From UHGV virus genome UHGV-0357081: a stretch of DNA of 42,409 nt. One strand, 5' to 3'. This DNA comes from a virus. Below the pieces are notes generated by a model. It was not told the origin of the DNA. It worked only from the letters and a program-made list of their open reading frames with translations, and searched no databases. A program made the position numbers and the translations under genes. This document shows, piece after piece, positions 3,732 to 33,919 of this stretch (the stretch's first letter is position 1; the number at the start of each line of letters is the position of its first letter).

Positions 3732-3890
3732 ATGAAATTAATTGAACTTATGTGTAGTTGTACAAACGAAAGCAGTGATTATATTATTGATTGCTGTTGC
3801 CCATCTGATTATGGGACAAATTACGAAAAGTACGAAAAATGCGAAGGAAAAACATGTAAAGAATGCTGGGAGCAGGAAGTAGAATATTAA
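3732..3890 (+). CDS. small Cys-rich protein (52 aa)
   Basis: GGAGAAACAAG-ATG RBS. CSC..DCCCP..C..C..C pattern suggests a metal-binding mini-protein. Below the ORF-track length cutoff. Confidence 0.3.
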   Translation: MKLIELMCSCTNESSDYIIDCCCPSDYGTNYEKYEKCEGKTCKECWEQEVEY

Positions 3891-3968
3891 GATTTAGGCA
3901 TCTGGGGATACATAGCAGACTGCAACCGGTAGGCCTGCTCCCCCAGTGTAAGCCCTATAGAATATAGG

Positions 3969-5157: not shown

Positions 5158-6204
5158 ATGAGTACACAGACAATTAAAGCTGAAATAATCAACAATGTAC
5201 TGGTAGCAATGTCCTTATATATCATGGAGCAACAGACTCTTACCATTCTGCAAAATGTAATGCAGCAGGAATTGGTAAGAGTAAATATGGAGGAAATAAC
5301 TACTCTTCCGGCAGAAAGAAAAGATGATATAAGCCAGCGGAATCAGTACATAATACAATTGTTCCTGATTAAAAAACGCGATTTGGCAAAAGGAACTAAA
5401 CAAAACTATCTTAATGCCATACGAAGATTGCTGACAGAGATAAGCACAAAATCACTGGACCAGATGGATACCACTGATATTGATTGGTATTTATCGCGGT
5501 ATGAAATTAGAAATGTATCTGCCGGGGGAAAGAAAAACCAGCCTAGTACCTATAATAACGAGCGCAGATTTCTGTCAGCATTCTTCGCATGGATGCGCCT
5601 TGAAAAGCTTATTACAGATAATCCGGTAGAGTCTATACCAGCTAAAAAAGTACCCATTAAACCAATTGATTACTACAGCCCAGAAGAATCTGCAAGGTTA
5701 AGGGATGCGTGCAAAAATATCCGTGAGAGAGCCTTACTGGAAGTGCTTCGAAGTACTGGGGCCAGGATAGGAGAGATTGCGGAAATAACGCTTGACCAGA
5801 TAGATATGAGGAGTGGAGACATATGGATACAGGGAGAGAAAGGCGGAAGATACCGTACAATCTATCTGGATGATGATGCGCGGCATTATTATGGACTGTA
5901 TTTGGACAGCAGGAAAGATGATTGCCTGTATATGTTCCCACGCTCCAGAAAGCCGTATGGAAAAATGACCACTTGTGGATTCCGGGCAATATTGAAAACC
6001 ATAAAAAAGAGGGCCGGATTAACATGCCGGGTATATCCGCATAAGTCACGCAAGACGCTGGGAATGAATTTGAAAAACAGAGGGGTTGATATTGGGACCA
6101 TACAGGAGATTATGGGACATGCAGACCCGGGAGTGACGGCCCGGTATTATGCGCAGTCAAATCCCCGCACCCTTCGGTCGATAAGGGAAAGGGTTAATGT
6201 GTAA
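5158..6204 (+). CDS. tyrosine site-specific recombinase (XerC/XerD/phage-integrase family), second recombinase of the genome
   Basis: Start chosen at ATG 5158 after RBS GAGGAGGA. Catalytic-domain signatures are RSTGARIGEI (Arg), HKSRKT (His-x-x-Arg) and GHADPGVTARYYAQ (His and Tyr). Confidence 0.8.
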   Translation: MSTQTIKAEIINNVLVAMSLYIMEQQTLTILQNVMQQELVRVNMEEITTLPAERKDDISQRNQYIIQLFLIKKRDLAKGTKQNYLNAIRRLLTEISTKSLDQMDTTDIDWYLSRYEIRNVSAGGKKNQPSTYNNERRFLSAFFAWMRLEKLITDNPVESIPAKKVPIKPIDYYSPEESARLRDACKNIRERALLEVLRSTGARIGEIAEITLDQIDMRSGDIWIQGEKGGRYRTIYLDDDARHYYGLYLDSRKDDCLYMFPRSRKPYGKMTTCGFRAILKTIKKRAGLTCRVYPHKSRKTLGMNLKNRGVDIGTIQEIMGHADPGVTARYYAQSNPRTLRSIRERVNV

Positions 6205-9402: not shown

Positions 9403-10836
9403 ATGGGACTAATAACATGGGCTAAAAAGGTGATAGGAATGATATTCAAGCGACAGGCAGAAGAAGATTTTAACGTTGAATCAGTGGTATCCCCGGAGAT
9501 GGAAAGCAAGATTACAGAGTGCGCCAATATCTACCGGGGTACTCCCTATTGGGTAAATGCTGACGATAACGTTAAGACAATCAACTTTGCAAAGGCTATA
9601 TGCTCAGAGACGGCCCGGCTTGCTACTTTGGCAATCGGAATACAGATTGACGGGAGCGCGCGAGCGACATGGCTCCAGGAACAGATTGATAAGATATATT
9701 TCCAGATTAGACATTGGGTAGAATATGGTATGGCCTACGGCACAATCATACTTAAGCCAAACGGTAAGGGACTGGACATATTCACACCCATGGATTTTAT
9801 CATTACAGACTGCGACAATGAAGGTATATACGGAATCGTATTCAAGGATAGCTACAGCGAAAATGATAAGTATTATACCCGGTTTGAGTATCATCGGTTT
9901 GTCGAAGTCAAAGATGGAGAGAACACCTATTACCCATATTACATATCCAATAGAGCTTATGTGTCTCACTCTGCAAAAAGCGTGGGGGAACCGATAGCAT
10001 TAAACAGGACTAAGTGGTCCGACTTGCTTCCAGAGACTCCACCTATACTTAAAGCAAACAATGAGAAAATAGATGGTCCCATGTTTGGCATACTACGCAC
10101 TCCACAGGCTAATAATTTGGATATTTCATCACCTTTAGGATTGCCAATATATGCCGAGGCCATAGAAGAATTAAAGGACCTTGATATAGCATACAGCCGA
10201 AACGTGGGTGAAATATTTGACAGTGAGAAGATTATATTGGCAGACGACCAGCTGATGTTTGGAAGCGGTACAAACATTAAAGGCCGTTATGCTGGCATGA
10301 GCAATGAAAAGCTTCCTCATTATGTTAAAAATGTATTTGGAAATGGAACAGAGTCTTTCTATCAGGAGATTGTTCCATCGTTGAATACTGATATTAGAAT
10401 TACCGGAATAAACAACCTACTCTCATTTGTGGGATTTAAGTGTGGATATTCCAATGGGTATTTTGTGCTTGATGAAAAAACAGGAATGGTCACAGCCACA
10501 CAGGTAGAGGCTGACGACAGGAGAACCATACAGCTAATCAAGGATGTGCGCGACAAACTGGAAAGTTGTCTTGACGGGGCAATATATGCGCTCAATGTAT
10601 ATGCTGACCTGTACGGACTGGCACCAGCCGGAAACTACGAAATAACATATGATTTTGGGGACATTACATACAACCGTGAAGAGGACCGGGCAAGATGGTG
10701 GCAGTATGTTGTGCAGGGGAAGGTACCACCCTGGATGTATTTCCAGAAGTTTGAGGGATTATCTGAAGAAGATGCAAAAGCTATGGTAAAGGAAGCACAG
10801 CCGAAGGATGGACCTAGGATGTTTGAGGAGGAATAA
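9403..10836 (+). CDS. portal protein (SPP1 gp6-like)
   Basis: 477-aa protein immediately after the terminase, with size and order typical of SPP1-family portals. Confidence 0.75.
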   Translation: MGLITWAKKVIGMIFKRQAEEDFNVESVVSPEMESKITECANIYRGTPYWVNADDNVKTINFAKAICSETARLATLAIGIQIDGSARATWLQEQIDKIYFQIRHWVEYGMAYGTIILKPNGKGLDIFTPMDFIITDCDNEGIYGIVFKDSYSENDKYYTRFEYHRFVEVKDGENTYYPYYISNRAYVSHSAKSVGEPIALNRTKWSDLLPETPPILKANNEKIDGPMFGILRTPQANNLDISSPLGLPIYAEAIEELKDLDIAYSRNVGEIFDSEKIILADDQLMFGSGTNIKGRYAGMSNEKLPHYVKNVFGNGTESFYQEIVPSLNTDIRITGINNLLSFVGFKCGYSNGYFVLDEKTGMVTATQVEADDRRTIQLIKDVRDKLESCLDGAIYALNVYADLYGLAPAGNYEITYDFGDITYNREEDRARWWQYVVQGKVPPWMYFQKFEGLSEEDAKAMVKEAQPKDGPRMFEEE

Positions 10837-13885: not shown

Positions 13886-13939
13886 TACACAAATCAATGC
13901 GCATGATTTTGTAAATAAATTTTAAAGGAGTAAATATTT

Positions 13940-15868: not shown

Positions 15869-15897
15869 AAGGCAGGATTAATTTCCTGCCTTTTTAT
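15869..15897. terminator. bidirectional rho-independent terminator
   Basis: GGCAGGATTAATTTCCTGCC perfect hairpin flanked by an A-run and TTTTTAT, between convergent genes. Confidence 0.7.
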
Positions 15898-16855
15898 GAT
15901 GAATTTGTACAGGACGTGTCAAAGCATCTATAATGTTCCACCCGCTATATATGCGACTATGTACTCTTGCATAAGAAGCATTGTATTCTCTACACCATTC
16001 CGCAAGAGATTTCGTTGTTCCGTCTATTTCAAACATCAAATTTCTGTTTGTATTATTGTTCTGCTCAATAATTGTAGCCCATCTACAATTTGAAGGTTCA
16101 TAATTTTTTGAACTATCTATCCTATCAATGGATAAGTTATCTGAATACCCGTTTTCTAAAGCCCATTTTTTGAAGTTATTGTAATCTTTCCATTCGTCAC
16201 ATACAGAAATCCCTTTTCCACCATATAAATAGTACGAATCATGTTTTACACTGCTACAGCGAAACAACATATCGCTCCATATTCTATAAATCCTGGTTTT
16301 GGTATCTCCATGAGTTTTATTTCTTTGTATTATGGACTCTCTGCTATAACATCCACACGATTTAGTATGCCCGGTTGTCAAATCTTGTTGATGAACAATA
16401 CTTATATTCCCACAATCACATTTACATTCCCATAAAGTTTGATTTCCCTTGCTTTTTCCGGCATATCGAATAGCGACCAATCTTCCAAATCGCTTTCCTG
16501 AAATGTCCTCTACTCTTGATTTTCGGCAATCGGGGCATGACTTGTTGTATTTGGATTTTAAAGTATTATCACTGGTAACAAATATTTTCCCGCAATCGCA
16601 TTGGCATTCATATTGCGTATATGATTTTGTTTTCGGAAGCTTTCGCAGTACAGTTAATTTTCCGATTTTCTTACCTATAAAATCATCTTTATTGGCACAT
16701 CCGCAAGATTTTGTTTTTCCGTTACGCAAATTTCCGGTATAGATTTTTCGTGTCGTTCCGCAATCGCAACGGCATAGATAATACAAATTTCCCAGATATT
16801 CCAACACCGTCCACATTCCAAACTTTTGACCTGTTAAATCAATTCTTTTTGTCAT
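15878..16855 (-). CDS. HNH/AP2 homing-endonuclease-like protein with three N-terminal Cys-rich repeats
   Basis: Three repeats of G.[KR]FG.L.V......W.C.CDCG......L..G.T.SCGC, then RIYRIWSDMLFRC...DRIDSSKNYEPSNCRWAT (HNH_3/AP2-type). Start set at the internal ATG preceded by AGAAAGGGG. Confidence 0.65.
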   Translation of the reverse strand: MTKRIDLTGQKFGMWTVLEYLGNLYYLCRCDCGTTRKIYTGNLRNGKTKSCGCANKDDFIGKKIGKLTVLRKLPKTKSYTQYECQCDCGKIFVTSDNTLKSKYNKSCPDCRKSRVEDISGKRFGRLVAIRYAGKSKGNQTLWECKCDCGNISIVHQQDLTTGHTKSCGCYSRESIIQRNKTHGDTKTRIYRIWSDMLFRCSSVKHDSYYLYGGKGISVCDEWKDYNNFKKWALENGYSDNLSIDRIDSSKNYEPSNCRWATIIEQNNNTNRNLMFEIDGTTKSLAEWCREYNASYARVHSRIYSGWNIIDALTRPVQIHHKKAGN

Positions 16856-16880
16856 TAAGTAACCCCTTTCTATATTCAAT

Positions 16881-16909
16881 ATTATATCATAAGAACGAGA
16901 AACAATCAA
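16881..16909 (-). promoter_or_regulatory. sigma-70-like promoter for the HNH gene
   Basis: Minus-strand TTGATT-17-TATAAT with extended TG. Plus-strand equivalents are AATCAA at 16904-16909 and ATTATA at 16881-16886. Confidence 0.4.
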
Positions 16910-26319: not shown

Positions 26320-28113
26320 GTGTTTTTAAAGCAATCCATATTATCTGATGCAGAACAGAATACTGAGGGATTAAAGATTGTTTATGATGACTTGGCCCCT
26401 TATGCCAAAGAAAATAGTACAGCATCCATTACAAGACCTGGATTAAGACCGAGAATAGGACTTCGTCCAGGCCCTGGTTTACATCCGCGTGGGACGATAA
26501 CAGAGCAAGAATTCCCGGAATTAAAGCGGGATGATATTTCTTATCCCGGATACGCTCTATGCTTTCCACGGTTTTCTTTATTAAATGGAAAGTATATTAA
26601 TTTTCCAGATAATCCGCTTCCTTACGGATACATAAGCCCGGAAGTATCAAATGAGCAAGGATTGTTTGGGTATATTAAGCAGAGCCAGGGGCTTAAACCT
26701 CAAATGGGTTTGCATCCAGGAATGTTTTTATACCCGAAATCAACAACTGAAACGTTGATTGAATCCCCCATGTTAACAGTGACATTTAATCAGAAATTTA
26801 CTAGTGTAGGGTTGCTTTTTACTTTTAATATGATGTCGGGCGATTATTGCACCAGAATGAGAATTAAGTGGTACTCGGATAATAGCCTATTGTCAGATAT
26901 GGAGTTTTACCCGGATTCAGTGCGATATTTTTGTAATAATTATGTGAGAGGATATAATAAGCTGGAAATCACATTTTTACAGACATCAAAACCCATCAGG
27001 CCGGTATTTGTCACCAGAATAGATTATGGAATATACAGAGACTTTCTGGACAACGAATTGCTGGAAAGAAACTGTTTGCAAGAAATCAATGCCATATCAG
27101 AAAGCATAAGTATCAACACTTTGAATTTTACGGTCAGAACAACATCTAATATACCGTTTGATTTGCAAAAAAAGCAGAAGCTTACACTGTATTTTAATGG
27201 AGAGTTGATAGGGAATTTTTATCTAAAAAACGGCGCAAGAAAAAACAAAACAGATTACCATATGGACGCGCATGATGCAGTGGGTGTATTGGATGGTAAT
27301 GAGTTCGCTGGAGGAATATATACAGGCCAGCCGGTTTCTGAAGTATTAGAAAAAATATTTGAGAATGAAGATTTTAATTATTTATTGGATGAATCATTTT
27401 CAGATATTCCGCTTTATGGATACATACCGTATACCACAAAGAGAAACGCATTAGTATACATATGCTTTGCTATTGGAGCTATTGCAGATACAAGCAATTA
27501 TGATGGAATTGTTATATATCCACAGGAGAATGCTTTGAGTGGTGAATTCTTGCCGGATGAAGTGTTTTCCGGTGTTACATTAGAGCATTCTGATATTGTT
27601 ACTGGAATCAGGCTGACAGTACATACTTATAAAAAATCTAATGAAGCGCAAGAATTATATAATGATACTTTAAATGGAACAGCAGAGATTATTTTTAGCG
27701 AGCCTTATCACAGTCTGGACATAGCTGGTGGAATCATTGGTCAGCACGGGGATAACTATGCCTATATAACTGGAACTGGTGGAAATGTAACACTGACTGG
27801 TAAGAGATACAACCATCTCACCACATCAATCCTTAAAGAAAATCCAGATATTGTATTTAATAAAAACATCCGTGAAGTAACAGACGCAACATTGGTTTAT
27901 AGTGGTAATGCGCAGCAAGTGCTTGACCGCGTATATGCATATTATCAGCGAGCAGAAAATGTGGTGGGGGATGTTCTTATTGGAACAAAAAAATTAGGAC
28001 AGAAAGTCAAGATTGATACAGATTACGATGGATACCGCACAGGCATTATTGAGAGCTACAATTATAGCTTTTCTCCCAACGAAATTAAGGCAGAGGTAAA
28101 AATACATGAGTAA
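26320..28113 (+). CDS. tail tip / baseplate structural protein
   Basis: GTG 26320 with RBS AGAGGAGG 8 nt upstream. ~598 aa. Repeated GLRPRIGLRPGPGLHPRG and GLKPQMGLHPG motifs. Confidence 0.45.
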   Translation: MFLKQSILSDAEQNTEGLKIVYDDLAPYAKENSTASITRPGLRPRIGLRPGPGLHPRGTITEQEFPELKRDDISYPGYALCFPRFSLLNGKYINFPDNPLPYGYISPEVSNEQGLFGYIKQSQGLKPQMGLHPGMFLYPKSTTETLIESPMLTVTFNQKFTSVGLLFTFNMMSGDYCTRMRIKWYSDNSLLSDMEFYPDSVRYFCNNYVRGYNKLEITFLQTSKPIRPVFVTRIDYGIYRDFLDNELLERNCLQEINAISESISINTLNFTVRTTSNIPFDLQKKQKLTLYFNGELIGNFYLKNGARKNKTDYHMDAHDAVGVLDGNEFAGGIYTGQPVSEVLEKIFENEDFNYLLDESFSDIPLYGYIPYTTKRNALVYICFAIGAIADTSNYDGIVIYPQENALSGEFLPDEVFSGVTLEHSDIVTGIRLTVHTYKKSNEAQELYNDTLNGTAEIIFSEPYHSLDIAGGIIGQHGDNYAYITGTGGNVTLTGKRYNHLTTSILKENPDIVFNKNIREVTDATLVYSGNAQQVLDRVYAYYQRAENVVGDVLIGTKKLGQKVKIDTDYDGYRTGIIESYNYSFSPNEIKAEVKIHE

Positions 28114-28543
28114 GTATTTAGAATCCCTTATTTTTGACCGTACGCAGTCAGACATAATAGAATTAACCGACAAGGCTTACATTGATTACAAAGACCTAAA
28201 CCGTGTCGAACAGGCAATCAAATGGGTATCTTATGTCCTTAATCAGTACGGATATAGAAATACGATTGTATCTAAGACATGGAAACCGCAGGACCATAGG
28301 ACGGATTACGAAATGGACCGTCTGAAAAAAAATATAGTTGCAATAAGGAATGCATACTATACAGACAGCAACACCCCGCTAACCCCTGATAAGATAACAT
28401 ACACATCAGTTTATCAGGCCAACGCCATAGAAAGAATCATTTATGATTTGGGGAATCTGATTGTAAAATCCTGTCCAGGTCCAAACCATCTTGCATTCAC
28501 ACTTGGAAGGAAAACATTAGGAAACAGGAGTATAAGCCTATGA
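28106..28543 (+). CDS. tail-associated hypothetical protein
   Basis: ATGA-overlap with the upstream gene. Confidence 0.35.
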   Translation: MSKYLESLIFDRTQSDIIELTDKAYIDYKDLNRVEQAIKWVSYVLNQYGYRNTIVSKTWKPQDHRTDYEMDRLKKNIVAIRNAYYTDSNTPLTPDKITYTSVYQANAIERIIYDLGNLIVKSCPGPNHLAFTLGRKTLGNRSISL

Positions 28544-29446: not shown

Positions 29447-30349
29447 ATGGCGAAGTTGGCGTTACATAAATTTGGTAGTCAAGCGAATCTGGATGACTTA
29501 ACAGCAATGCCAGAGGATGTATTGGAAGGTAATATATTCCTTGGGAAAGGAAGCGAGGAGAAACAGACCGGAACACTTCCAGACAAAAAATCCCCAACAA
29601 TTATATTGCCGGCAAACGGGGAAATAAAACTTGAACCTGGATATTATTCAGGTGGGAAAATCACCCAGAACATTGAAACATTTAATGCACAGACAATCGG
29701 TCCTGGAGCAAAACAAATCACGGTCAAGACTGCTGGAAAATACGGGAATGGTGATATCACTATTAATCCGGTTAAAAACCTAACCCCTTCGGTCATTAAG
29801 AAAGGTGAATATGTTGCAGGCGTAGGTCCTGGACTGTGGGAAGGATATGTAAATGAGGACCCATATACCCCATATCTATTCGGGACATTTTATGGCTCAC
29901 AGGGTATTACATATTTTAGGTATACAACATATAGACAAGGTACTGGTACGGTAAAACTGTCAAAGGACCACATAGAAGCAAGTGCAGGTTCAGGAGAAAC
30001 AGTCGCATTTGTTTTTGACCTACCCATCAACCTTACAAATGTAAAATCGGTTACGGTCCAAATGTCTGGAACCGGAAAGGTTTGCAAGGTTATGGTATGC
30101 CGGAATAGGGTGGAAAACTATATTGAGGAAGCATATCAGTCCGGTTCAAGCGTGCAATATAGATATAATCCGAATCTAGGTGACATATTACTTGATGGGT
30201 CAATTGGAAGAAGTAGCTCTTCCGGCGCTGAATGGGAGCAAGAAAAAACATTTACCTTAAGCGGAATAACTGGCAATGCCTACCTGTATATTGGAGCTTC
30301 TGGGGCTGCGTTTGACTACAATTTATATTTGGCTAGATTTAATCTGTAA
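29447..30349 (+). CDS. tail fibre-like protein (long paralogue)
   Basis: ATG 29447 (MAKLALHKFG). Paralogous N-terminal half to 29004..29429. The C-terminal tip (...SGITGNAYLYIGASGAAFDYNLYLARFNL) resembles the inverted ORF at 30863..31168. Confidence 0.45.
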   Translation: MAKLALHKFGSQANLDDLTAMPEDVLEGNIFLGKGSEEKQTGTLPDKKSPTIILPANGEIKLEPGYYSGGKITQNIETFNAQTIGPGAKQITVKTAGKYGNGDITINPVKNLTPSVIKKGEYVAGVGPGLWEGYVNEDPYTPYLFGTFYGSQGITYFRYTTYRQGTGTVKLSKDHIEASAGSGETVAFVFDLPINLTNVKSVTVQMSGTGKVCKVMVCRNRVENYIEEAYQSGSSVQYRYNPNLGDILLDGSIGRSSSSGAEWEQEKTFTLSGITGNAYLYIGASGAAFDYNLYLARFNL

Positions 30350-30358
30350 GGAGGTTAC

Positions 30359-30862
30359 ATGAATAACATAGAAAATATCCAAGAATATATACCTACTGTG
30401 TATGTTAATGACTCTGAGCCGGATTTGGATGAGACAAACTTAAACAAAACAGAACAGGCAATAAAACGGGTAACTGATGCAGCCAATAAAGCAATTGATG
30501 CATTAAAGCAACTGGACCGGGAGAAGTTAGCGTTATCTGCTATATCTAACGTATTATCTGATGCTACAGATAAGGTTCCATCATTGGCTTTAGCTAATAC
30601 AATGCAGCTCGCGATTAATGACTTAAATAGCAATTTATCAGATAAAACGAATACCAGTGATTTTAATAATTTGAAAAACTCAATTGTTATGGTTAATGTC
30701 ACTGGATTTGCAATTGGAATTGACGGTAATAATGTTATAATCCAGTGGCTGACCGGAGAGAATAGAGAATTTGGCTATGCACTCAATATTGGAACCACAG
30801 ATGGCACAATGCAGTTTTTCTACCGTGAGAATGGTACGTGGAAACCCTCATGGAACAAATAA
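30359..30862 (+). CDS. hypothetical tail-fibre-region protein
   Basis: RBS AAGGAGGTTAC-ATG. Its stop abuts the stop of the convergent minus-strand ORF. Confidence 0.4.
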   Translation: MNNIENIQEYIPTVYVNDSEPDLDETNLNKTEQAIKRVTDAANKAIDALKQLDREKLALSAISNVLSDATDKVPSLALANTMQLAINDLNSNLSDKTNTSDFNNLKNSIVMVNVTGFAIGIDGNNVIIQWLTGENREFGYALNIGTTDGTMQFFYRENGTWKPSWNK

Positions 30863-31168
30863 TCATTGTACTGAATAGATAATCTCGAAATAAAAAATGC
30901 TATTTCCTGTAGCACCAGAATCTATAGTTATATTCCCGGATCCAGGTGTAGTCTTAAAAACACCATAACCGGTTGTGCCATGAATCAAATAGGCTCCGTT
31001 GTATGCGGCTGCCGGAAGTCCGGAAAACAATAGGGTATTATCTATTGTGGTATTGGTCTTTAAGGTAATCTGTGCGTTTATAACACATTGTCTGCCAATT
31101 TTGTAGTAGCTTACTCCTCCAGTGGCCCAATCAGAATTGACTGTACCAACACCATTTGCAAATACCAA
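30863..31168 (-). CDS. inverted fibre-tip-like ORF lacking a proper start (possible alternative C-terminal cassette)
   Basis: Open frame with no ATG and no RBS (TTG only). Its stop is directly adjacent to the stop of 30359..30862. ...GNITIDSGATGNSIFYFEIIYSVQ resembles the C-terminal tip of 29447..30349. Confidence 0.3.
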   Translation of the reverse strand: MVFANGVGTVNSDWATGGVSYYKIGRQCVINAQITLKTNTTIDNTLLFSGLPAAAYNGAYLIHGTTGYGVFKTTPGSGNITIDSGATGNSIFYFEIIYSVQ

Positions 31169-31212
31169 ATTGCTATTTTGCTATATAAAAACATACCCAT
31201 GAAAGGAGTAAA

Positions 31213-32534: not shown

Positions 32535-32770
32535 GTACCATCTTCGGAAATATGCAACACGAAATGCAACACGGAGCCTACAAACCGCATAAAACCGTTG
32601 TATTTTACGGGTCCGATTCCCGTCAGCAGCTTTTTCTTAAAACCTTGTAGATACGTAGAAAACAACGTATTTGCAAGGTTTTTTCATGTTTTTGGATAGC
32701 ACTTCCTCCGTGACAGACGGAGGAAATAATTATAATATTTAGGATATATGCAACACGATGCAACACGAAA
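32535..32770. other. candidate attP: arm-type repeat clusters flanking a core-like dyad
   Basis: TGCAACACG[AG] occurs four times in two tandem pairs (32553-32574 and 32749-32768). Perfect 8-7-8 dyad TTCCTCCG-TGACAGA-CGGAGGAA at 32703-32725. T-arm-like hairpin ACGGG-TCCGATT-CCCGT at 32607-32623. Confidence 0.4.
32639..32690 (+). terminator. late-operon terminator (two-tier hairpin plus T-runs)
   Basis: AACCTTG...CAAGGTT stem with an inner ATACGT/ACGTAT stem, followed by TTTTTCATGTTTTT. Confidence 0.4.
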
Positions 32771-32784
32771 AATATGCTATTCTA

Positions 32785-33855
32785 TCACATGATGAACTTT
32801 TCAAAGTGTTTATTGATTTTTTTATTTTGCCGGACAGATTCCAGGTCAATCACATTCCTGTATACAGTTTTCATGATATTGTCACTGGCCCATCCTCCTC
32901 GCTGCAATATATATTGGTCTGGTACACCTATGGCGTGCATAATGGATGCAGCATAATGCCGGAGGTCGTGAAAGCGGAAATGCGGTACATCAATCTTTTT
33001 AAGCACCCGCCCAAATCTATGTGTGATATAATCCGGGTTCATGTCAACTAATTTTCCTTTCTTTCCAGATATCCGGTCAATTACAAATGCCGGCATTTCT
33101 ACGTCCCGTGTGCTGTCATCCGTCTTTGGCTGTTTGATATACCATTGATTGTCTGGCCCCTTAACCATATTGTCTCTTACATGGATAATACGACCCTCTA
33201 TATTTTTATCCGTAAGGGCGCTTATCTCTCCACGTCTGAGTGGCCCAAACGCAGCCAGTAACACGGCTATCTCTAAATCTGTACCTTTGATGGCGTCTAA
33301 CAACTTTTTGATATCATTGTCATTGGGGCAGTACAAATCTGGGCGCTTTTTCTGCGGAAGCTTTACCTTTAAGGTTAAATCCGGCGCAAACATTTCCAAG
33401 GATGCGGATAACAGGCCATAGGCATTTCTAACTGTCTTTGGAGACAGTTGTTTCCCTGCCAAATCACTTACCCATATCTGTACAGATGGATTAGATAGCT
33501 CTGAGAGCCGTTTACGCCCAAATACGCAGTCAAAATACTGCCTTTGCATACCAACATACCCTCTAAGCGTAGAAGGGCTTAAAACGCCTTTTTTAACGTT
33601 TAAATAACGTTCAATAGCTTGGCTCACTGTTATATCTTCGTCCTCGTCCTCTTCCGGTACATTGTATTGCTCTATGGGCTTATCCTTCATATCTAATTTC
33701 CATCTAGCAGCCATTTCTTGTGCGATTTTACGTGATGGAGCAACAAAACTTTTGTAATGTCGTTTACCTTTTTCATCCGTATATAAGTATAATTGTACAC
33801 GGATATTTTTGGATGGCAGTTCTCCTTTTTTCTTTTTCGGGGCTTTCTTTGTCAT
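32785..33855 (-). CDS. int: phage integrase (tyrosine recombinase)
   Basis: Start at ATG 33855 (MTKKAPKKKK) after GAAGGAGGA. Arm-binding-like N-terminus, then a catalytic domain with ...FHDLRHYAASIMHAIGVP...LQRGGWASDNIMKTVYRNV (His and Tyr). Located between the lysin and the repressor module. Confidence 0.9.
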   Translation of the reverse strand: MTKKAPKKKKGELPSKNIRVQLYLYTDEKGKRHYKSFVAPSRKIAQEMAARWKLDMKDKPIEQYNVPEEDEDEDITVSQAIERYLNVKKGVLSPSTLRGYVGMQRQYFDCVFGRKRLSELSNPSVQIWVSDLAGKQLSPKTVRNAYGLLSASLEMFAPDLTLKVKLPQKKRPDLYCPNDNDIKKLLDAIKGTDLEIAVLLAAFGPLRRGEISALTDKNIEGRIIHVRDNMVKGPDNQWYIKQPKTDDSTRDVEMPAFVIDRISGKKGKLVDMNPDYITHRFGRVLKKIDVPHFRFHDLRHYAASIMHAIGVPDQYILQRGGWASDNIMKTVYRNVIDLESVRQNKKINKHFEKFIM

Positions 33856-33919
33856 TTCTCTTTCCTCCTTCAATTGATTTCCCTAAAATGGGTATAAAAA
33901 ATACAGCTCCGCAAATATC

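Follow-up and report, generated by a model that had tools for sequence, protein, structure and literature searches.

The 42,409-nt virus genome UHGV-0357081 (below, the window, meaning the whole stretch of DNA that was analysed) very probably carries an invertible switch of receptor-binding tips at 30359..31178, with two tips and 12-bp in-frame crossover sites. The start-less open reading frame (ORF) on the minus strand at 30863..31168 is the silent alternative C-terminal tip of the convergent 167-aa gene 30359..30862. An earlier note, made from the letters alone, had read this ORF as an alternative receptor-binding tip that is stored inverted and start-less and is switched by inversion. The natural flipped copies described below bear this out, and the partner named there, the fibre gene 29447..30349, has to give way to 30359..30862.

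We propose that gene 30359..30862 encodes a receptor-binding protein (RBP) in which a constant helical stem (aa 1-93) carries a C-terminal tip. At its 3' end the RBP gene runs into a 530-nt segment, in which tip A is in frame and tip B is inverted without start or promoter. Site-specific recombination between the two copies of AAATAGCAATTT would flip this segment, and after the flip the stem would be joined to tip B and tip A would be silent. A phage or lysogen population may then make particles with either of two receptor specificities. The inversion is presumably catalysed by a tyrosine recombinase. The elements of the proposed switch are as follows.

30359..30637, plus strand: constant N-terminal part of the RBP, aa 1-93, ending ...AINDLNSNL, the same 93 aa being found on many unrelated tips
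30625..30636, plus strand: left crossover core AAATAGCAATTT, an exact 12-mer, in frame as (A)AT AGC AAT TT(a) = N-S-N-L
30637..31166, no strand: invertible segment of 530 nt, with both tips stop to stop between the cores
30638..30862, plus strand: tip A, the expressed C-terminus (an ORF end of 74 aa, SDKTNTSDF...GTWKPSWNK, then TAA)
30863..31165, minus strand: tip B, the silent C-terminus (100 aa, VFANGVGTVNSDW...FEIIYSVQ, then TGA), without start, ribosome-binding site (RBS) or promoter
31167..31178, minus strand: right crossover core AAATAGCAATTT, an exact 12-mer, in frame

The silent ORF, its partner gene and the crossover sites

The minus-strand ORF 30863..31168 has 101 codons, of which the first is TTG. 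Several features that the earlier note had pointed out were seen again: an in-frame TAG stands five codons upstream of the TTG, no ATG or Shine-Dalgarno-like sequence lies upstream, and the stop of the ORF (TCA on the plus strand, 30863-30865) touches the TAA (30860-30862) of gene 30359..30862 with zero spacing. No promoter-like site was found for it on the minus strand. The minus strand upstream of the TTG reads TAG-CAA-AAT-AGC-AAT-TTG, that is stop-Q-N-S-N-L, and thus the apparent start is the Leu codon of the N-S-N-L junction, which occupies codons 90-93 of the plus-strand gene.

To search the protein collection we used as the query a test fusion of 30359..30862 with tip B, made at a second in-frame inverted repeat, ATTTGCAA.TGG..TTG (F-A-[IN]-G), which lies at 30706..30722 and 31147..31163, where the beta domains of tips A and B begin. 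Two natural 193-aa proteins (P0001 and P0002, encoded in the related loci L004 and L003) matched over the full length of the fusion with 83-84% identity. They read ...AINDLNSNL followed by VFENGVGTVNSDW...IIYSVQ, that is the stem plus tip B, and their junction lies at NSNL, 22 codons upstream of the ATTTGCAA repeat. This repeat was rejected as the junction, because the database proteins join at NSNL and none of them at ATTTGCAA. It is the TTTGCAA repeat that the earlier note had described as out of frame; its codons in fact line up on either strand (TTT GCA = F A), and it is not the junction used in nature.

The recombination sites had been called not evident in the earlier note, and they can now be placed at the two in-frame copies of AAATAGCAATTT. 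These are the only exact copies in 42,409 bases, against ~0.005 expected by chance (2 x 42409 / 4^12). On the minus strand the right core is preceded by the in-frame TAG and the conserved outer flank catgggtatgtttttatatagca. The homology to relatives breaks or flips exactly at the left core 30625..30636, and a 10-bp core, ATAGCAATTT (codons S-N-L), is found at the left junction in ~40 loci. Between left and right sites 10-13 bp are conserved, forming a near-palindrome with a symmetric centre, GC. A copy of the core with one mismatch, AAATAGCATTTT, lies inside tip B at 30894..30905 on the minus strand, in the orientation of the right site and with codons N-S-I; it is probably due to chance and could have a role as a pseudo-site.

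AlphaFold2 models placed helices at residues 25-67 and from 76 to 92-93 in the stem, with low confidence as a monomer, which is expected for an oligomeric stalk. Tip B was modelled as an all-beta domain with pLDDT above 90, and its best PDB matches in Foldseek were the RBPs of Listeria phage PSA and of the lactococcal phages TP901-1 and p2, as well as adenovirus fibre knobs (probability 1.00, E ~1e-3, TM score up to 0.65 on the head, sequence identity 9-16%). Tip A was modelled as a small five-strand beta domain unlike tip B (pLDDT 84-91 over residues 120-167). Searches of Pfam, PHROGs and NCBIfam gave no family match for tip A, tip B or the stem. The RBPs of TP901-1 (ORF49/BppL), p2 and PSA (gp15) have a similar layout of a short N-terminal stem or helical neck and a C-terminal beta-sandwich head of ~100 aa, but they are not encoded with invertible alternative heads. 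Within the stem, a 52-nt stretch (30428..30479) is 71% identical to 28184..28235 in gene 28106..28543; the two stretches code for the same N-terminal motif, D..LN..EQAIK.V, which may serve both proteins for docking at the baseplate.

Flipped copies, selection and spread of the design

In L003 and L004, which encode P0002 and P0001, tip B is the expressed tip, and a start-less ...NSNL-SGKTNTSDFNNLK...GTWKPSWNK, namely tip A, lies on the other strand directly after the stop of tip B. The window at 30625-31178 aligns with both loci in reverse orientation at 97.1-97.3% identity, and the flanks align directly at 82-91%. Tip A occupies the silent inverted position in L012, L090, L098 and L280 as well as in L003 and L004. 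The opposite orientation, which the earlier note had suggested looking for in related phages, was thus found here and also in near-isogenic isomers, as follows.

The closest flip isomers concern another tip pair. L012, from IMG/VR, and L281, L284 and L286, from other data sets, have left flanks 99.7-100% and right flanks 98.3-100% identical (both flanks 99.2-100% when L281 and L286 alone are compared), and a segment of 488 nt that matches at 99.8% when reversed. At either core, adjoining alignments share 13 nt (AAATAGCAATTTA), and the recorded protein P0015 is exactly the product that a flip of L012 would give. A third mirror pair, L001 against L287 and L288, has a segment 99.8% identical when reversed and flanks of 94-96%, and a fourth is formed by L096 against L104 and L107. 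Moreover, the prophage of Enterocloster hominis CLA-SR-H021 (L280) and a prophage in a metagenome-assembled genome (L279) have backbones 96-99.6% identical to the window, and this homology ends exactly at 30637 and restarts exactly at 31167; L280 has tip A in the silent position, and L279 has a wholly different cassette pair. Both orientations thus exist in nature on an otherwise same genome, as the near-isogenic isomers of another tip pair show, and L003 and L004 are mirror loci for the tip pair of the window itself.

A few contig ends were also observed at these sites. The IMG/VR contig 3300045988_082260 (L008) ends exactly at the outer edge of the right core, and two others (L013 and L014) both end 41 nt past the left junction. 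If a sample contained both orientations or several tips, its assembly could break at such points; the observation fits this and is anecdotal.

Selection on the tips was examined by the Nei-Gojobori method as the ratio of nonsynonymous to synonymous differences (pN/pS) between homologous tips.

Expressed versus expressed tips: 9 pairs, pN/pS 0.18
Expressed versus silent tips: 17 pairs, pN/pS 0.17
Silent versus silent tips: 10 pairs, pN/pS 0.19

The silent tips are under the same purifying selection as the expressed tips. Since they show no drift towards a pN/pS of 1 and have gathered no stops, they must be expressed often enough to be kept. The earlier note had held that a silent frame not conserved as open in relatives would indicate a decaying remnant; all silent cassettes in the ~40 related loci that we surveyed are intact frames, of 41-183 aa.

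The same anatomy recurs throughout this survey. Where a locus is long enough, it shows one forward core at the ...SNL junction and one reverse core 442-1041 nt downstream, with two convergent cassettes whose stops are 0-10 nt apart, except in one locus (51 nt). The loci represent at least 4 unrelated constant stems and at least 12 tip types in many pairings, and the 93-aa stem of the window is itself joined to many unrelated C-terminal tips in database proteins and IMG/VR loci. The outer flanks are constant; the inner flanks vary and travel with the cassette. In L100 the same two-base variant of the core, AATTCCAATTT, stands at both ends, which is a case of co-variation. L102 has one core mismatch, and in L103 and L091 the right site has decayed. 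Conservation is higher in the segment than in its flanks, as between the window and L003 (97.3% against 83-85%) and between L001 and L287 (99.8% against 94-96%), and the tip pairs are freely re-assorted between loci. Evidently, as judged from such alignments, whole segments or single cassettes can move between phage backbones at the core sites.

The design is also found in PMBT24 (OQ326496), a cultured virulent 100-kb Enterocloster phage, directly after the tape-measure gene.

L006 4696..5529 = OQ326496.2 36596..37429: switch of PMBT24, with the core TATAGCAATTT at both ends

Its expressed tip has 94-95% nucleotide identity to tip A, and its silent tip is annotated as an ordinary hypothetical coding sequence (CDS; WDQ45526.1). 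PMBT24 has no integrase and has an Xer-like recombinase, ORF122. The genome paper of this phage does not mention an inversion.

Candidate recombinases and rival readings

The window has two tyrosine recombinases, Int and rec2. The earlier note had listed the second of them, and Pfam agrees.

5158..6204, plus strand: rec2, Xer-like tyrosine recombinase and candidate invertase (Pfam Phage_integrase, 8.7e-31, and SAM_4)
32785..33873, minus strand: Int, prophage integrase (phrog_1 integrase, 6.7e-51)
32540..32760: probable attP, adjoining int

With regard to a serine recombinase, a tblastn search of the window with probes for Gin, Hin and TnpR found only short matches at chance level (best E 0.025 over 37 residues). 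In NCBIfam, rec2 matched XerA (1.2e-41) and XerD (5e-29), both below their cut-offs, and the models of tyrosine-type DNA invertases more weakly (3e-9); its PDB match is the XerC-like 4a8e (2e-21). It is armless and lies ~25 kb upstream of the segment. It is present in 12 contigs that cover both regions, frameshifted in one and matched only from residue 55 in another, and is absent from 3 contigs with intact sites; contig 077088, in which rec2 is frameshifted and the right site has decayed, was counted for rec2. Int is found wherever a contig reaches its position, which makes it uninformative on co-occurrence with the switch.

We regard rec2 as the leading candidate for the invertase, at somewhat less than an even expectation, as it is the only recombinase without an assigned role and belongs to the type proposed for the Rin shufflon. 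The earlier note had connected it with the switch; the gene is there as a putative invertase, and it is missing in three relatives with intact site pairs. A host enzyme or another one acting in trans is a serious candidate too, again held at a little below even, and a host enzyme in trans would explain why the core is shared by unrelated phages of one host genus. It is unlikely that Int, a lambda-like integrase with its own attP, inverts the segment.

Several observations weigh against the switch as proposed, or against the part given in it to rec2 and to the tips. No recombinase lies inside or directly beside the segment. In three close relatives, with terminases 96-97% identical, both sites of the pair are perfect and the 6 kb upstream of the terminase contain no rec2. 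In these relatives (L198, L200 and L201) a different gene module takes the place of rec2, with a PAPS-reductase-like gene in L198, and L198 (IMG/VR 2534682205_000002) retains at ~3856..3942 a dead 3' remnant of a rec2-like gene (..YPGVTERYYAQSTPHTIRSARE..), so that the loss of rec2 was secondary. PMBT24 has the same core; the one recombinase of this phage is ORF122 ('XerD'), which was rejected as an orthologue of rec2 because the two share just 23% identity; no homologue of this XerD above 27% identity was found in the fibre, terminase and phage-genome loci checked, from which rec2-anchored loci were excluded. The conserved repeat of 10-13 bp, with inner flanks that are not conserved, is short for a complete tyrosine-recombinase site. 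The flipped protein of the window's exact genotype is absent from a collection of 15 billion proteins, and the flipped left junction with the flank of this phage was not found in IMG/VR or JGI metagenome contigs, where the junction search gave one extra match (L289) in the window's own orientation. The flips are seen between assembled contigs, and ongoing switching within one population is presumed from them. A fold search of the PDB gave no significant match for tip A, and the idea that the tips set receptor or host specificity is suggested by the modelled RBP-head fold of tip B, by the unlike fold of tip A and by the position of the gene.

One other reading takes the inverted ORF as a frozen relic, left from a past inversion or tip replacement, no longer switching and decaying. 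The window's exact genotype has been seen in assemblies in one orientation only, and the decayed or mismatched right sites in L091, L103 and L102 and the loss of rec2 in some relatives would suit such a relic. On the other hand, the silent tip is an intact 100-codon frame like all of the ~40 silent tips, its class shows a pN/pS of 0.17-0.19 like the expressed tips, near-isogenic isomers exist, and the cores of the window are perfect. We therefore consider a relic improbable.

Another reading needs no dedicated invertase: co-infecting phages would exchange DNA at NSNL and the right flank by RecA-type or phage recombinases, and the inverted copy would be a passenger in a mobile tip module. The better conservation of the segment than of its flanks and the re-assorted tip pairs do indicate that whole segments move between backbones. 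However, exchange between directly oriented flanks cannot invert a segment, which needs the two inverted 12-bp copies, and 12 bp are too short for efficient homologous recombination. Moreover, at least four independent mirror pairs have their breakpoints exactly at the core, the cores co-vary in L100, and the core DNA is kept across unrelated stems including that of PMBT24. General exchange as the whole account thus has a low probability.

The partner proposed in the earlier note would make the cassette an alternative tip of the 300-aa fibre 29447..30349, with an inversion spanning 29447..31212. This rested on a loose motif resemblance by eye between the C-terminus of the ORF and the tip of that fibre, which is not significant in alignment (BLASTP best E 0.89), and the shared pattern G[KR].C[KV][VI] is trivial. 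No in-frame inverted repeat links 29447..30349 to the cassette, the 300/313-aa gene stays conserved and collinear in every relative, independently of the tip pair, and the natural fusions join tip B to the stem of 30359..30862, so that this reading is already refuted and very improbable. An independent small antisense gene translated from the TTG, for which the open frame of 101 codons and the annotation of the equivalent PMBT24 ORF as a CDS could be cited, has a negligible probability, as there is no RBS or promoter-like site, the TTG is the Leu of N-S-N-L with a frame that runs on upstream to a stop, and the same sequence forms the C-terminus of longer proteins.

As to the setting of the locus, the window is a ~42 kb temperate siphovirus-type genome, with genes for terminase, portal, major head protein, tape measure, a VanY-type endolysin, integrase and a cI-like repressor, and its host is Enterocloster. 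Gene 30359..30862 follows the genes for the tape measure and baseplate-like proteins and precedes the endolysin, and the genes near the invertible segment are those of a 137-aa structural-module protein, a 41-aa ORF and the endolysin. The structural region had been described as uniformly plus-strand apart from the inverted ORF, which does not hold for one further gene.

15878..16909, minus strand: HNH endonuclease gene, 343 aa (phrog_374, 2e-102)

This gene interrupts the head-gene module on the opposite strand and looks like a homing-endonuclease-type insertion. At the attP region, the homology of integrated prophages (L107, L102, L280 and L286) to the window stops at 32631-32643. Direct repeats of the TATGCAACACGA type, containing ATGCAACACGA, stand on either side of this end at 32543-32562 and 32739-32758 and look, from their letters, like arm-type integrase sites; a hairpin lies at 32639-32682.

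Two further observations concern RBP-like genes in other phages. In a second RBP stem family (L016-L021, IMG/VR, gene at 10001), the stems are 54-59% identical, the junction is ...LLTKLNGEM and the tips are diverse. Five of its six contigs stop 0-340 nt from the junction or from the end of the gene, and in L018 the gene is immediately followed, on the opposite strand, by an Xer-like tyrosine recombinase that is 29% identical to rec2 (E 9e-31); the layout may be Rin-like and a cause of assembly breaks. Clostridium phage phiCs5676-1 (L005) has the closest rec2 homologue among cultured phages, CS5676_0062 (54% identity). In its genome an in-frame 11-bp inverted repeat, AATAATTGAGA (I-I-E-K/T-N), at L005 12801..12816 and 13912..13927 spans an RBP-like gene and connects the end of CS5676_0014, a minor tail gene, with CS5676_0016, a convergent ORF, and an IS200-type transposase adjoins this locus. 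The repeat could belong to an analogous switch with a different core. No relatives of the phiCs5676-1 locus were found in the phage collection.

Known systems and meaning of the proposed switch

Programmed inversion of tail-fibre tips is textbook knowledge for Mu, P1 and other enterobacterial phages. The host-range switches Mu G/Gin, P1 C/Cin, e14 P/Pin and p15B Min are driven by serine invertases of the Hin/Gin family, whose genes adjoin the segment and whose sites work together with a Fis-bound enhancer. They resemble the present locus in that a constant 5' part lies outside the segment and two convergent 3' parts lie inside it, giving two host ranges in those phages. They differ in that the window has no serine recombinase, its segment has no second gene of the U/U' type, and its repeats are 12 bp instead of ~26-34 bp, with no ~26-bp site having a 2-bp asymmetric core. 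Moreover, the present phage is a siphovirus of a Gram-positive host with a short RBP, not a long fibre. The R64 shufflon acts on the pilus gene pilV of a plasmid, with the tyrosine recombinase Rci, 19-bp sfx sites, multiple segments and an adjacent rci gene. It also swaps the C-termini of an adhesin in frame at short sites with one flank free to vary, and a tyrosine recombinase is probable in both systems, whereas R64 is a plasmid and not a phage and has several segments, the adjacent rci and sfx sites of 19 bp, to which the present site is unrelated in length. To our knowledge, outside Proteobacteria tip inversion has been inferred only for a few actinobacterial prophages.

The closest precedents are inversions in Bifidobacterium prophages, and the single-segment system among them is closer than the Rin shufflon. 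In the tRNA-Met prophages 689b-1 and Bb423phi2, a ~500-bp segment is inverted at an 8-bp repeat without a flanking recombinase (Mavrich et al. 2018, PMC6109161). For this simple inversion an invertase in trans was proposed, and its genes had no assignable function (PMC6109161). In both cases a segment of ~0.5 kb, made of the 3' end of a structural gene and a small convergent gene, is found inverted between relatives; the repeat at the breakpoints is very short (8 bp in those prophages, 12 bp in the window), and no recombinase adjoins the segment. The hosts are Actinobacteria there and Clostridia here, and the repeat is unrelated (CAGGGTTA). Compared with 689b-1 and Bb423phi2, the present system offers an RBP with a modelled TP901-1-like head, ~40 loci, flip isomers that are near-isogenic, co-varying sites and silent copies under selection.

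In the Rin shufflon of Bifidobacterium, a constant RBP part is combined with several Rv cassettes, the rix site measures 11 bp and the Xer-like gene rin lies alongside (PMC6109161); Rin is also found in Eggerthella lenta prophages (PMC8778435). Rin and the present switch both join a constant RBP N-terminus to alternative C-termini with TP901-1-like heads at a short in-frame repeat (11 bp there), and in both the presumed enzyme is an armless Xer-like tyrosine recombinase, not a serine invertase. Rin has three or more cassettes and the flanking rin, whereas here there are two cassettes with one forward and one reverse core per locus, no adjacent recombinase, and a single Xer-like gene 25 kb away that is dispensable in some relatives. 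In the literature, we found no such switch described for Enterocloster and nothing comparable for phages of Clostridia or Lachnospiraceae. The type of switch is thus already known, and what is new is its presence in a phage group of abundant gut Clostridia (Enterocloster).

The notable points are the compact anatomy, its spread over unrelated phages by means of one tiny in-frame site, and the free re-assortment of tips. The anatomy is easy to recognise and recurs in dozens of metagenomic phage genomes and in one cultured virulent phage. Start-less inverted ORFs of this kind should neither be annotated as genes nor be dismissed as junk, and host-range prediction for such phages must weigh both tips that a genome encodes. 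Switchable or swappable RBPs for phages of gut Firmicutes might also be engineered with the 12-bp in-frame site and its enzyme.

Finally, tip pairs are freely re-assorted at a single conserved site, and cassettes may thus be exchanged in a wider system. As a tentative and rather doubtful extension, ATAGCAATTT (S-N-L) might be a communal docking site, at which unrelated Enterocloster phages, spanning temperate siphoviruses with at least 4 stems and the virulent PMBT24, both invert and trade tips with a recombinase supplied in trans by the host or a resident prophage. If this were true, the phage community would share an integron-like pool of host-range cassettes instead of each phage having a private two-state switch.

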